NCBI RefSeq assembly: GCF_000026545.1
Contig: NC_011601.1
Length of the DNA: 64,000 bases
Direction: 5' to 3' (one strand)
Source of the DNA: Escherichia coli O127:H6 str. E2348/69
Lineage (GTDB): Bacteria; Pseudomonadota; Gammaproteobacteria; Enterobacterales; Enterobacteriaceae
Shown here: one piece after another, positions 11,835 to 15,807 of the stretch
How positions within the stretch are numbered: the first letter of the stretch is position 1
Layout: each line of letters begins with the position of its first letter
Made by a program: the position numbers and the translations under genes
The notes under the pieces: generated by a model
Databases searched by the model: none
Seen by the model: only the letters and a program-made list of their open reading frames with translations
Told to the model about the DNA's origin: nothing

Positions 11835-13384
11835 CTGTCTCTTGATCAGATCTCCTGATCAAGAGACTTCATCACCAGGTAACCCTCAACCATATCCTGA
11901 AGTCTGAACCAGCCATCCCACATGACTACCCAACCGGGGCGACCGGTGCGTTTGCTGTCATGCCATCGCCCCAGTTTCGCCAGTTTCAGACAGGCCCATT
12001 TCAGTGTCGGCATCTGTGACGGAAGCGGTTTTCCTTCCAGCTTAACCCACAGCAGTTTCCACTCTGTCGGCGTCAGTATTTTCTCACAGCTGTCATTTTG
12101 TGTTTCTTCACTGATACCGCCCTGCCGCAGGCCCAGCACCCGCACCGCGATAAACGCCTTGATAACCACCATGCGCTCGAGGTTATCCCGGGTCTGCATT
12201 CGCAGCGATTCCACACATGTACCACCACTTTTCCACGCCTTGTGGTATTCCTCTATCAGCCAGCGTCGCTCGTAATGGCTGACGATACGTCGCGCATCGG
12301 CGGCACTCGCCACTTTTTCTGACGTCAGCAGATGCCAGCAGGCGCCGTCCTCTGCCTGCTCCCGGCAACAGACATACGTGAGCGGGAGCGCCTGGCCGCT
12401 GTTGTCGGGATTTTTTATGCTGACTTCGCTGTAACTGATGAACATCCGGGCCTGGCGGGCTGCCCGCCCGCCTTTTTGCATCACATTCAGCGTGTGGCTT
12501 CCCGCGGTTGCCAGGACTTCCGGCAGTTCGAAGAGCTTGCCGGGTGCTTCTTCCAGCCGGCGATTCTGTGCTGCACGCACCACGAAGCGCTGCCCGTGGC
12601 TGACTTTATAATGCAGGTAATGCCAGATATCCGCTTCCCGGTCACAGACAGTGATTACCCGTTTCTGTATCTCCCCCAGCCGTTCGGCCATGCGCTCCGA
12701 AGCCTGCTGCCAGCGGTAACTTTCTTTTTCTTCATAGGGACGTTCTTTTCGCTGGTGCTTAACACCGTAGGTGTCCGTGGCACGACTCCAGCGCTGCTGT
12801 TCGATAAGACCGACTGGCAGGGCGCTGTCGGGGGCGTACATCAGGACAGAGTGAGCCAGCAGCCCGCGCGTCTTCGGGTTAGTGGTGGTATTCCCCAGGT
12901 CATCAGATGCCGTACTGTGACTGAAGTTAATGGTGGTGGTGTCTTCCAGCGCGAGGAGCAGCGGATGAGCCTCACATGCCCTTACAGTGGCGGTAAATCC
13001 GGCTTCGGCAATGGCTTGCGGGGACACAGACGGGTTACGTATCAGGCGGTACGCACCTTCAACCTGAGCAGTGGACTGGGATGATTTCACAATAGAAAGA
13101 CCTGCATGCTGAGCGAGAGAAGAGGCCAGTGACACAAGGCGTCGTGTACGACGCGGATCACCGAGACGGGCATGTCCAAACTGCTCGTTAGCCCATGAAT
13201 AACAATCAGAAAGTACCATAACAGACCCGAAGAAAATGAAATATAAGAGAAGATCAACAGGTGAGGAAAAAGTTCAAAAAATCGCTGCCGGGGAGGAAGG
13301 AAACTACCGGATGGAAAGAGTCCCCCTAAAGCAGACTGACAGACATCACAAATCCCCGGGTGGGGATTTGTGTATAAGAGACAG
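11835..13384 (-). mobile_element. IS4-family, IS50-like insertion sequence (1550 bp) flanked by 9-bp direct repeat ccaccatgc
   Basis: Left end ctgtctcttgatcagatct (IS50 inside-end-like, three GATC sites); right end ctgtctcttatacacaaat on opposite strand (outside-end-like); direct repeats at 11826-11834 and 13385-13393. Confidence 0.9.
11846..13219 (-). CDS. DDE transposase, IS4 family (Tn5/IS50 Tnp-like, divergent)
   Basis: 457-aa ORF with LGDPRRT, LEDTT, VCDREADI, RWLIEEYHKAWKSG, DSKRTG motifs matching Tn5 transposase blocks; stop codon lies inside the inside-end repeat. Confidence 0.88.
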   Translation of the reverse strand: MVLSDCYSWANEQFGHARLGDPRRTRRLVSLASSLAQHAGLSIVKSSQSTAQVEGAYRLIRNPSVSPQAIAEAGFTATVRACEAHPLLLALEDTTTINFSHSTASDDLGNTTTNPKTRGLLAHSVLMYAPDSALPVGLIEQQRWSRATDTYGVKHQRKERPYEEKESYRWQQASERMAERLGEIQKRVITVCDREADIWHYLHYKVSHGQRFVVRAAQNRRLEEAPGKLFELPEVLATAGSHTLNVMQKGGRAARQARMFISYSEVSIKNPDNSGQALPLTYVCCREQAEDGACWHLLTSEKVASAADARRIVSHYERRWLIEEYHKAWKSGGTCVESLRMQTRDNLERMVVIKAFIAVRVLGLRQGGISEETQNDSCEKILTPTEWKLLWVKLEGKPLPSQMPTLKWACLKLAKLGRWHDSKRTGRPGWVVMWDGWFRLQDMVEGYLVMKSLDQEI

Positions 13385-15807
13385 CCACCATGCACGGCTG
13401 TCCTCCGCATGAAATTGAAGCCATTTGCCGCTACATGCTGGAAGAAAAAGGGCTCAACACCTTTGTGAAACTTAACCCGGCCTTACTGGGGTATGCGCGT
13501 GTTCGTGAGATCCTCGATGCCTGCGGTTTCGGTTACATAGGCTTAAAAGAAGAGTCATTTGATCACGACCTCAAGCTGACGCAAGCACTGGAAATGCTGG
13601 AACGCCTGATGGCACTGGCAAAAGAAAAATCACTCGGCTTTGGCGTAAAACTGACTAACACTCTCGGCACCATCAACAATAAAGGCGCACTGCCCGGTGA
13701 AGAGATGTATATGTCAGGCCGTGCGCTGTTCCCGCTCTCCATCAACGTTGCAGCAGTTCTCTCTCGCGCCTTTGACGGCAAACTGCCCATTTCTTATTCC
13801 GGTGGTGCCAGTCAGCTGACTATCCGCGATATTTTTGATACTGGTATTCGCCCTATTACTATGGCAACCGACCTGCTGAAACCTGGCGGCTATCTGCGCT
13901 TAAGTGCCTGCATGCGCGAGCTGGAAGGCTCCGACGCCTGGGGACTTGACCACGTTGACGTCGAACGACTGAACAGACTGGCAGCAGACGCGTTAACCAT
14001 GGAATACACCCAGAAACACTGGAAGCCAGAAGAGCGTATTGAAGTGGCTGAAGACCTGCCGCTGACCGATTGCTACGTTGCCCCCTGTGTTACTGCCTGC
14101 GCTATCAAGCAAGATATTCCGGAATACATCCGTCTGCTTGGCGAACACCGCTATGCCGACGCGCTGGAACTCATCTATCAACGCAACGCCCTGCCCGCCA
14201 TTACCGGTCATATTTGCGATCACCAGTGCCAATACAACTGTACCCGCCTGGATTACGACAGTGCGCTGAATATCCGCGAACTGAAAAAAGTCGCCCTGGA
14301 AAAAGGTTGGGATGAATATAAGCAACGCTGGCACAAACCAGCCGGTTCTGGTTCACGCCATCCGGTTGCCGTGATTGGTGCAGGTCCGGCGGGTCTGGCG
14401 GCAGGTTACTTCCTTGCCAGAGCGGGCCATCCGGTCACGCTGTTTGAACGCGAAGCCAATGCGGGCGGCGTGGTGAAAAATATCATTCCTCAGTTCCGTA
14501 TTCCTGCAGAGTTAATTCAGCACGATATCGATTTTGTTGCCGCTCACGGCGTGAAATTTGAGTACGGTTGCTCACCCGATTTGACCGTTGAACAGTTAAA
14601 AAATCAGGGCTTCCACTATGTTCTGATTGCCACCGGCACTGATAAAAATAGCGGTGTGAAACTGGCGGGCGACAACCAAAATGTCTGGAAATCACTCCCT
14701 TTCCTGCGTGAATACAACAAGGGCACCGCGCTCAAGCTGGGCAAACATGTGGTCGTTGTCGGGGCGGGTAACACCGCAATGGACTGCGCTCGTGCGGCGT
14801 TACGCGTTCCAGGCGTAGAAAAAGCAACGGTCGTTTACCGTCGTTCACTGCAAGAAATGCCCGCTTGGCGCGAAGAGTATGAAGAAGCGTTGCACGACGG
14901 CGTGGAGTTCCGTTTTCTGAATAATCCGGAACGTTTCGATGCTGATGGCACCTTAACCTTGCGCGTTATGTCGCTTGGCGAACCTGATGAGAAAGGTCGT
15001 CGCCGTCCGGTAGAAACCAACGAAACAGTAACACTGCATGTAGACAGCCTGATCACCGCCATTGGTGAACAGCAGGATACTGAAGCCCTGAATGCGATGG
15101 GCGTGCCGCTGGACAAAAACGGCTGGCCAGACGTCGACCATAATGGCGAAACGCGTCTGAGTGACGTCTTTATGATCGGCGACGTACAGCGCGGACCATC
15201 CTCCATTGTCGCTGCTGTCGGAACCGCGCGTCGGGCGACCGATGCCATCCTGAGTAGGGAAAATATCCGTTCCCACCAGAACGATAAATACTGGAATAAC
15301 GTCAATCCGGCGGAAATCTATCAACGTAAAGGCGATATCTCTATCACTCTGGTGAACAGTGACGATCGTGACGCGTTTGTCGCGCAGGAAGCCGCTCGCT
15401 GCCTTGAATGTAACTACGTTTGCAGCAAGTGTGTGGATGTCTGCCCGAACCGCGCCAACGTCTCCATTGCGGTTCCTGGCTTCCAGAACCGTTTCCAGAC
15501 GCTGCACCTCGACGCTTACTGTAACGAATGTGGCAACTGCGCCCAATTCTGCCCGTGGAACGGTAAACCGTACAAAGACAAAATCACCGTCTTCAGCCTG
15601 TCGCAAGACTTTGATAACAGCAGCAACCCAGGCTTCCTTGTGGAAGATTGCCGGGTACGCGTACGTCTGAATAACCAAAGCTGGGTGTTAAACATCGACA
15701 GCGAAGGTCAGTTCAACAACGTACCACCGGAGCTGAACGATATGTGCCGCATCATTAGCCATGTCCACCAGCATCATCATTATCTGCTGGGTCGCGTGGA
15801 GGTGTAA
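13385..15807 (+). pseudogene. ygfK: ygfK 3' fragment (native codons 229-1032): glutamate-synthase-small-subunit-like FAD/NAD(P) oxidoreductase with 4Fe-4S domain
   Basis: Frame continues from the target duplication (ATG at 13390 inside the repeat); GAGPAG dinucleotide-binding motif; Cys-rich C-terminus; 228 + 804 aa = 1032. Confidence 0.85.

Follow-up and report, generated by a model that had tools for sequence, protein, structure and literature searches.

An ISEc13 insertion splits ygfK in Escherichia coli E2348/69 and probably leaves a silent 3' fragment behind a duplicated in-frame ATG

The ygfK gene of E. coli O127:H6 E2348/69 is interrupted by a copy of the insertion sequence ISEc13. Based on our analysis of a 64-kb window (the whole 64,000-nucleotide stretch, to which all coordinates refer), we are confident that this is a recent, simple insertion that has left ygfK a split pseudogene, with a 3' piece that is most likely silent and a product that would not be a yanthine reductase. 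We propose that ISEc13 entered ygfK by cut-and-paste transposition, recently and within the O127:H6 E2348/69 lineage, and that staggered cleavage of the 9-bp target duplicated CCACCATGC, including the Met228 codon of ygfK. Because the duplicated CCACCATGC contains this codon, a copy of the Met228 ATG would thereby have been placed after the outside-type end of the element. In the proposed mechanism the native promoter and ribosome-binding site could continue to direct synthesis of the 5' piece (228 residues followed by Pro-Val-Ser), and the 3' piece, which appears to have neither a promoter nor a ribosome-binding site of its own, would most likely remain silent. The RefSeq/PGAP annotation already flags both halves as pseudogenes and describes the 3' half as 'missing N-terminus'.

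The inserted element is 1550 bp long, lies on the minus strand (11835-13384) and is an IS4 family member of the Tn5/IS50-like kind. It is 100% identical to other annotated ISEc13 copies in E2348/69, the chromosome of which has about 30 ISEc13 places (best identity 100%) in addition to the plasmid copies; a second copy sought within the 64-kb window was not found. The transposase gene (457 aa, 11846-13219, minus strand) points away from the 3' fragment of ygfK. Its product matches the Tn5 transposase over the full length (residues 6-453, phmmer E = 6e-84) and contains the Pfam domains Tnp_DNA_bind (70 bits) and DDE_Tnp_1 (31 bits) above cut-off, with Dimer_Tnp_Tn5 (24.1 bits) slightly below its cut-off of 26.7, and as judged from its sequence it is a DDE transposase of the Tn5 type. 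The left, inside-type terminus (11835-11867) is identical to the IS50 IE at 19 of 19 positions and can fold into a perfect 13-bp hairpin (11837-11849 / 11855-11867, -21.3 kcal/mol). The right, transposase-proximal terminus (13347-13384), which adjoins the ATG, shares 17 of 19 positions with the IS50 OE, so that its designation as an outside end in the initial annotation of this DNA was correct, and it too can form a perfect hairpin, of 11 bp (13347-13357 / 13362-13372, -18.2 kcal/mol). The terminal inverted repeats are of the CTGTCTCTT... type, with the first 9 nt the same at both ends. The transposase, the terminal repeats, the 9-bp duplication and the multiple near-identical copies together indicate an IS4-family, IS50-like element.

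The 9-bp direct repeat CCACCATGC is perfect on both flanks of ISEc13, with the left copy at 11826-11834 and the right copy at 13385-13393, and it is the right copy that contains the duplicated Met228 codon as an ATG (13390-13392) beginning 6 nt past the final base of the element. When ISEc13 and one repeat copy are deleted in silico, an uninterrupted ygfK of 1032 codons results, in which the junction ATG is codon Met228, and the uninterrupted allele of another strain reads ...tccaccatgcacggc..., with the repeat in single copy. The junction sequence and the reconstruction confirm what the initial annotation had claimed, that through the duplication the ATG at 13390 stands in the native frame of ygfK. 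Its wording that the duplication supplies this ATG is right in that the copy stems from the target duplication; the codon is not a contribution of the IS, being the native and invariant Met228. An in-frame ATG falls in 4.9% of all 9-bp duplication positions possible in ygfK (9.4% if GTG and TTG are included), and a duplicated in-frame ATG is no more than chance would give. Indeed, with about 30 ISEc13 places in the strain and a site frequency of 4.9%, one such case is unremarkable.

Several ways in which translation might cross this junction were considered and rejected. A TAA in the ygfK frame (13375-13377, plus strand) inside the IS end shuts that frame five codons ahead of ATG 13390 and so closes it to translational read-in from the IS. 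The two plus-strand open reading frames that span the junction (13236-13412 and 13370-13468) are both in other frames, and a minus-strand ORF (13087-13410) cannot be fused with the transposase since, by coordinate arithmetic, its frame differs from that of the transposase gene. No Rfam family was found near the junction, the only ones in the 64-kb window being 6S and Sib, which lie elsewhere.

The ORF of the 5' fragment (11150-11845, plus strand) consists of 228 native codons, the last being Met228 at 11831-11833, followed by the IS-encoded Pro-Val-Ser and a TGA at 11843-11845, and its native start has a strong Shine-Dalgarno (SD) pairing of -9.1 kcal/mol. The ORF of the 3' fragment (13390-15807, plus strand) has 805 codons from Met228 and then a stop, rather than the 804 codons first counted. 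In the full-length protein, Pfam places Fer4_20 at residues 453-532, Pyr_redox_2 at 552-839 (with GAGPAG at 557-562) and C-terminal 4Fe-4S matches at 900-955. Residues 1-440 have no Pfam match, and a PDB sequence search with residues 1-442 returned chance-level matches only; the N-terminal domain was assigned by means of an MSA-based AlphaFold model together with Foldseek. The model of residues 1-442 (pLDDT 90, pTM 0.91) contains eight beta-alpha units, and in the PDB Foldseek matches it best to dihydropyrimidine and dihydroorotate dehydrogenases, with E values of about 1e-10 to 1e-8. The intact, reconstructed YgfK is, by sequence and predicted fold, a flavin reductase like dihydropyrimidine dehydrogenase (DPD), with FMN TIM barrel, Fer4_20, FAD/NAD(P)H and 4Fe-4S modules. 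Substrate reduction has been proposed to take place at the FMN site of YgfK; in C. difficile an FMN-only enzyme is used in its place (PMC12507026).

The ISEc13 break falls just past the strand at residues 220-225, within the invariant motif S226-T-M-H-G-C-P232, of which Met228 is a part. What is left of the FMN barrel in the 3' fragment is helix 4 with (beta-alpha)5-8, whereas Fer4_20, the FAD/NAD(P)H domain and the 4Fe-4S region at the C-terminus are retained. The retention of the FAD/NAD(P) module with its GAGPAG and of the Fe-S domain, as stated in the initial annotation, agrees with Pfam; left unmentioned there was that the 3' ORF alone has only half of the FMN catalytic barrel. Strands 1-4 of the FMN TIM barrel would be missing from the product of the 3' fragment. 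Both the fold and the literature point to this barrel as the substrate-reducing domain, and an 805-aa protein without its first half, if made, would not be expected to act as a yanthine reductase. In other TIM barrels, HisF for example, separate half-barrels are known to complement each other, and one could suppose that the two YgfK fragments are both produced and associate non-covalently into a split enzyme in which some YgfK activity is kept, given that the modelled break, after strand 4, is close to where the two half-barrels meet and that the 5' fragment has its native promoter and SD. This would, however, require the 3' fragment to be expressed, and no signal for that is seen. The cut also lies inside the invariant, active-site-like loop STMHGCP. 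Moreover, XdhD, the enzyme of the upstream step, is itself truncated, so that nothing selects for a split YgfK, and we give such reassembly next to no probability.

A silent 3' fragment, the reading that we prefer, is consistent with the properties of its start codon. SD pairing at ATG 13390 amounts to -2.9 kcal/mol, a background level that 32% of all ATGs in the window reach as well, and the earlier remark that no obvious Shine-Dalgarno precedes the ATG is borne out. Among the 12 annotated gene starts tested, ten pair with -6.1 to -11.3 kcal/mol and the two weak ones are those of mocA (-3.3 kcal/mol) and the transposase (-3.2 kcal/mol); pairing is better, at -7.6 kcal/mol, for the internal ATG of codon 691. 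In addition, the IS end and the duplication are predicted to pair with ygfK in a 7-bp stem, GACAGCC/GGCUGUC (13380-13402, plus strand), which holds the AUG in its 9-nt loop and is present in both the MFE and the centroid structures (-11.6 kcal/mol). The opening energy at ATG 13390 is 20.4 kcal/mol, above that of 91% of random ATGs. It should be noted that structure alone is a weak argument, since the native ygfK start is also predicted to be structured, with an opening energy of 23.0 kcal/mol.

The initial annotation had pointed to another outcome, in which an outward promoter in the outside-type end of ISEc13 and the duplicated Met228 ATG together cause an N-truncated YgfK with its FAD/NAD(P)H and Fe-S domains to accumulate, and this we regard as highly unlikely. 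The OE-type end does abut the fragment in sense, and the ATG opens an in-frame ORF of 805 codons. Low-level outward transcription has reportedly been seen with Tn5. For IS10, outward transcription from pOUT is documented at about 10% of lacUV5 and provides a precedent (PMC9330008). Specifically, though, a consensus sigma-70 scan found no promoter on either strand near the right IS end, and none on the plus strand in 13200-13390, scans of this type being prone to miss weak, non-sigma-70 or activator-dependent promoters. The best outward site in a PWM search is TCAACA-17-AAAAAT (13254/13277), and such scores occur about four times per kb per strand in the window. There is also the hexamer TATAAG at 13373-13378, which would set the start about 4-5 nt ahead of the AUG and give a near-leaderless mRNA; PWM candidates that use it do so only with a poor -35. 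As an extended -10 at the terminus it was rejected, being preceded by GTG and not by TGn, with a G in place of the near-invariant final T, and a hybrid promoter made from a -35 in the IS and a -10 in ygfK was also rejected, the best combination (GGGATT-17-CACCAT) scoring 0.29. Promoter prediction on the outward-facing end, the check that the initial annotation had put forward, yields nothing above background, and by sequence the ISEc13 outside end does not appear to hold an outward sigma-70 promoter; of the suggestion that this end drives transcription outward, the sense orientation into the fragment is what stands. The appeal to IS50 and IS10 ends does not help, because the sub-terminal region of ISEc13 cannot be meaningfully aligned with that of IS50 beyond the 19-bp end and knowledge of the IS50/IS10 promoters is not transferable.

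With no promoter above background, SD pairing at background level and a start predicted to be structured, the hedged proposal that an N-truncated YgfK might be expressed finds no support in the sequence. Further points against it are that the product would start mid-barrel in an invariant motif, which usually results in misfolding and degradation, that the open frame is explained by recency and that the neighbouring xdhD is dead as well. Judged by sequence and model, the start of the 3' fragment probably offers neither the translatability nor the complete product that characterize pOUT-type activation. To the more specific form, in which a weak, unrecognised promoter in the 165-nt leader (TATAAG at 13373, for example) yields a near-leaderless mRNA and from it a half-barrel, FAD/NAD(P)H and Fe-S protein of about 88 kDa, which would serve by itself in NAD(P)H-dependent electron transfer or combine with the 5' fragment (231 aa) into a split yanthine reductase, we assign scarcely any probability. 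If an outward promoter were present, ISEc13 would join the IS elements that activate neighbouring DNA and the junction would be a natural IS-created internal start, a modest addition to a well-known theme. Our literature searches returned nothing on ISEc13 promoters, the papers on this element being genome, resistome or isolate surveys by title and abstract; there were no matches for E2348/69 with ygfK or for E2348/69 with TSS and RNA-seq, and nothing specific on outward transcription from Tn5/IS50.

Transcription could also reach the 3' fragment from the other side. In the mechanism that we favor, transcription and translation that enter the IS from ygfK would end at the TGA at 11843-11845, and the 1.5 kb of untranslated antisense-transposase RNA beyond it, together with a terminator-like hairpin, would produce classical IS polarity. 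This hairpin lies on the ygfK-sense (plus) strand at 12454-12477 and has a GGCGGGC/GCCCGCC stem followed by TTTTTG (-16.6 kcal/mol), and by its sequence would oppose read-through from the ygfK promoter; three further terminator-like sites are found on the same strand inside ISEc13. Intrinsic terminators are rarely 100% efficient, neither of the IS-end hairpins is followed by a U-run and the codon-691 ATG has the better SD noted above, all of which could allow the native promoter to be read through across the IS, with de novo initiation at the duplicated or later ATGs giving trace truncated protein and some expression of ssnA/ygfM. Against this are the stop of the upstream ORF at 11845, beyond which, by the established mechanism of polarity, Rho would gain access to 1.5 kb of RNA that is not translated, the GC-rich hairpin and the other terminator-like sites, and the lack of an SD at ATG 13390, and we attach very little probability to read-through. 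Trace expression of the 3' fragment by one route or another is nevertheless conceivable from the sequence.

The distribution of the junction agrees with a recent insertion that inactivated the gene. Among 5426 complete E. coli genomes the ISEc13/ygfK junction occurs in three, all of them O127:H6, and the site is empty and intact in 5174. Over 2414 nt, the 3' fragment and the intact allele closest to it differ by only about 1 nt, which means that its frame is open due to recency and not to selection. With the ORF intact in most conspecifics and what is predicted to be an essential part of the protein lost, ygfK of E2348/69 qualifies as an insertionally inactivated pseudogene. Downstream in the same cluster, xdhD contains an amber codon (CAG to TAG at codon 422, 19228-19230, plus strand), annotated by PGAP as an internal stop, and this change of Gln422 is seen only in the E2348/69 lineage. 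The lineage-specific amber and the split ygfK together point to a decaying pathway. We propose that they mark the loss, in this lineage, of the first two steps of the recently described reductive uric-acid pathway, with the conversion of urate to yanthine (XdhD) and the reduction of yanthine (YgfK) gone and the rest of the cluster kept. Anaerobic growth with urate or without glucose induces the cluster (PMC12507026). E2348/69, the prototype EPEC, should, by its sequence, have lost the ability to break down urate anaerobically, a point of relevance to work on purine metabolism in the gut. The insertion in ygfK itself matters little, since this much-studied EPEC strain has about 30 ISEc13 insertions, of which it is one.

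Of the known systems, IS50/Tn5 is the closest to the element, as ISEc13 shares the Tn5-type transposase, the terminal sequences (OE 17/19, IE 19/19), the 9-bp duplication and the presence of GATC sites in the inside-type end. It is nonetheless a distinct element, with about 65% DNA identity to IS50 over aligned columns, a transposase of 457 rather than 476 aa, a perfect hairpin formed from each terminus and a leader of 165 nt between the outside end and the transposase start, compared with 92 nt in IS50, the two sub-terminal regions having no meaningful alignment beyond the 19-bp end. The likeness to IS10 pOUT is one of geometry only, the gene downstream being in sense orientation to the outside (transposase-proximal) end. 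The promoter pOUT has been mapped and is fairly strong (PMC9330008) whereas at the ISEc13 end no promoter is detected above background, and the genes activated by IS10 are intact and have their own ribosome-binding sites whereas here a truncated ORF without an SD follows. YgfK resembles dihydropyrimidine dehydrogenase (PydA/DPD) in having an FMN TIM barrel, a helical Fe-S domain (Fer4_20), an FAD/NAD(P)H domain and 2x[4Fe-4S] (PMC12507026). It differs from the pig enzyme in that Pfam coordinates and the model place the barrel at the N-terminus, with the domain order permuted, and the E2348/69 allele differs further in that the barrel is split after strand 4. The locus as a whole is like the IS-disrupted pseudogenes of IS-rich pathogenic E. 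coli and Shigella, where a conserved housekeeping or metabolic gene (about 95% intact in the species) is cut in one lineage, the IS is expanded (here about 30 ISEc13 places) and a second inactivating mutation is present in the same pathway. From these it shows no material difference, and its sole peculiarity is the in-frame Met codon in the duplicated 9-mer.

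The interruption of ygfK, the yanthine reductase gene, is very probably an ordinary, recent and already annotated ISEc13 insertion pseudogene in which the native Met228 codon happens to fall within the target duplication. Inspection of the sequence of 11400-13800 shows that the ygfK coding sequence meets CTGTCTCTTGATCAGATCT at 11835 and picks up again past ...GTGTATAAGAGACAG, the last base of the element being 13384. The 9-mer CCACCATGC flanks the insert, at 11826-11834 directly before the left boundary and at 13385-13393 directly after the right one, and deletion of 11835-13393 in silico restores a 1032-codon gene without interruption, whose codon 228 is the ATG within the 9-mer. 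In another strain, whose allele is uninterrupted, the site is ctc tcc acc atg cac ggc and the 9-mer is present only once. The initial annotation had proposed that the duplicated ATG (13390) could start an N-truncated YgfK transcribed outward from the IS end. Duplication, reconstructed gene and uninterrupted allele agree that this ATG is real, 6 nt from the IS end and in the native ygfK frame, so the anatomy was right, but the expression hypothesis finds no sequence support in promoter and Shine-Dalgarno (SD) scans. The ORF opened by the ATG (13390-15807) counts 805 codons rather than 804. The 5' fragment keeps Met228 too, followed by Pro-Val-Ser-stop from the IS end. Since a TAA at 13375, inside the other IS end, shuts the ygfK frame, translation cannot enter the 3' fragment from within the element. 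On the plus strand, a 58-codon ATG ORF (13236-13412) starts inside the IS, just past the start of the transposase gene (tnp) on the opposite strand, and reads out over the outside-type end, stopping 20 nt beyond ATG 13390 and in a frame other than that of this ATG; it lacks an evident SD and is likely to be spurious.

The ATG at the junction is not beyond chance and is the gene's own Met228, which is invariant across an alignment of 41 YgfK homologues with identity down to 47%. When every possible 9-bp duplication in ygfK is enumerated, an in-frame ATG is present in 4.9%, a share that rises to 9.4% if in-frame GTG and TTG are counted as well; because ISEc13 occupies some 30 places in the E2348/69 genome (30 on the chromosome, more on the plasmid), a single case of this kind is not remarkable. 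Among 5426 complete E. coli genomes, three carry the IS-ygfK junction, each of them O127:H6, and 5174 have the uninterrupted site. The insertion is recent, given that the 3' fragment is ~1 nt in 2414 away from the closest strains' intact allele and that no difference separates the inserted IS from its sister copies in E2348/69, and the still-open 805-codon frame is therefore no evidence of selection. Both ygfK halves are already pseudogenes in the RefSeq annotation.

A truncated YgfK was also said to retain its modules, and Pfam does place Fer4_20 (residues 453-532) downstream of the break, as well as an FAD/NAD(P)H domain that spans 552-839 and has its GAGPAG at 557-562, and a C-terminal 4Fe-4S region at 900-955; the fragment is nevertheless less complete than implied, its barrel being halved. 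Residues 1-440 have no Pfam match and no PDB sequence match, and this N-terminal region was therefore modelled with AlphaFold from an input alignment of 41 sequences (pLDDT 90, pTM 0.91). The model consists of eight beta-alpha units (strands 55-57, 79-81, 146-151, 220-225, 250-255, 311-315, 361-363, and 383-385), and Foldseek groups it with the FMN barrels of dihydropyrimidine dehydrogenase (DPD) and dihydroorotate dehydrogenase (E ~1e-10 to 1e-8, probability 1.00). A 2025 biochemical pathway study describes YgfK as a flavin-dependent reductase that dearomatises yanthine, with substrate reduction proposed at an FMN site and NAD(P)H input at an FAD site; in C. difficile an FMN-only DHO_dh-type enzyme replaces it (PMC12507026). 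The IS lies right behind strand 4, within the invariant S226-T-M-H-G-C-P232 motif, which by its position appears to resemble the catalytic-cysteine loop of DPD. As modelled, a protein from Met228 would have only half of the barrel, so that it could not act as a yanthine reductase and would more likely misfold.

Translation from ATG 13390 would probably also start poorly. The best pairing with the 16S 3' end within 20 nt upstream is -2.9 kcal/mol, a strength that 32% of the window's ATGs match or surpass, and this upholds the earlier remark that no obvious SD precedes it. Annotated gene starts give -6.1 to -11.3 kcal/mol in 10 of 12 tested; the other two, mocA (-3.3) and the transposase (-3.2), are comparable to ATG 13390. 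The junction creates a 7-bp stem, GACAGCC/GGCUGUC (-11.6 kcal/mol), that holds the AUG in its loop in the MFE and centroid structures alike, and opening the stretch from -20 to +15 would cost 20.4 kcal/mol, more than at 91% of random ATGs. Structure is likewise predicted at the native start of ygfK, so the structural argument is weak alone.

Two features of the element work against transcription that reads through from the ygfK promoter. Past the stop at 11843-11845, 1.5 kb of RNA across the IS is left untranslated, over which Rho-dependent polarity, an established mechanism, would be expected, and a strong terminator-like hairpin inside tnp (12454-12477, plus strand, antisense to tnp; 7 G-C pairs, then TTTTTG), with three further, weaker sites nearby on the same strand, would stop transcription entering at the inside-type end. 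Leaky read-through, weak outward transcription and split-barrel complementation are, even taken jointly, improbable.

Relaxed selection on the pathway fits better than a neo-functional truncated YgfK, since two independent lesions hit consecutive steps, the conversion of urate to yanthine by XdhD as step 1 and the YgfK reaction as step 2 (PMC12507026). Downstream of ygfK, xdhD (17965-20835) carries an amber at codon 422 (stop 19228-19230), a single C-to-T at 19228 (Gln422 CAG to TAG) relative to Nissle 1917, which has C, and the surrounding 201-bp stretch has a match at 100% identity only in the three O127:H6 genomes that carry the ygfK junction. With the ygfK insertion, steps 1 and 2 of reductive uric-acid degradation are gone in E2348/69; the rest of the cluster (ygeV, ygeW, dpaL/ygeX, ygeY, hyuA, arcC, yqeB, yqeC, mocA, ssnA, and ygfM) is annotated intact. 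Elsewhere, the window is collinear with NZ_CP059840.2, and at ~56750-58660 (890401-892309 of that record) the annotation shows truncated remnants of srsR (ygfI) and a methylmalonyl-CoA mutase gene (scpA/sbm) directly adjoining each other, which suggests that the sbm-argK-scpB-scpC operon was deleted in E2348/69. The only two Rfam matches in the window, 6S RNA (ssrS, 51610-51793) and a Sib antitoxin RNA adjoining ibsC (52442-52592), are ordinary E. coli features.

The geometry is favourable to outward transcription: tnp is transcribed leftwards, so that a pOUT-like promoter would point rightwards and read the 3' fragment in sense. Low-level outward transcription from Tn5 was reportedly seen by Berg et al. 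in 1980 and by Wang and Roth in 1988. The IS10 outward promoter pOUT is documented at ~10% of lacUV5 (PMC9330008). Promoter prediction on the IS end, however, yields no site above background. A consensus scan of both strands over the right-hand 200 bp of the IS detects no sigma-70-like site; in our position-weight scan, the top outward candidate (TCAACA-17-AAAAAT, 13254/13277) matches 8 of 12 consensus positions, a score that the window reaches ~4 times per kb on each strand, and no hybrid promoter combines an IS -35 with a ygfK -10. TATAAG at 13373 was rejected as a -10 (no usable -35; near-invariant final T missing).

The 1550-bp insert is 100% identical to copies annotated "IS4-like element ISEc13" in E2348/69, an EPEC strain of serotype O127:H6. 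Each terminus is part of a perfect hairpin made from the terminal repeat itself (left, 11837-11867, 13 bp, -21.3 kcal/mol; right, 13347-13372, 11 bp, -18.2 kcal/mol), the left one being in effect a second, inward-facing inside-type end copy 5 nt away; possible roles are transposase binding, blocking of read-in transcripts and mRNA 3' stabilisation. Between the boundaries, tnp (13219 to 11846, minus strand) encodes 457 aa with Tn5 N-terminal DNA-binding and DDE domains by domain search, a Tn5 dimerisation match slightly below the family cut-off (24.1 against 26.7 bits) and a full-length alignment to the Tn5 transposase (E = 6e-84). The 165 nt from the outside-type end to the tnp start have no meaningful alignment to the 92 nt of IS50, so that promoter knowledge from IS50 and IS10 is not transferable by homology. 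The termini themselves, compared with an IS50R copy from a plasmid record, are of the IS50 type: the tnp-proximal end adjoining the 3' fragment, justifiably called an outside end, shares 17 of 19 positions with the outside end of IS50, and the opposite end shares all 19 with the IS50 inside end.
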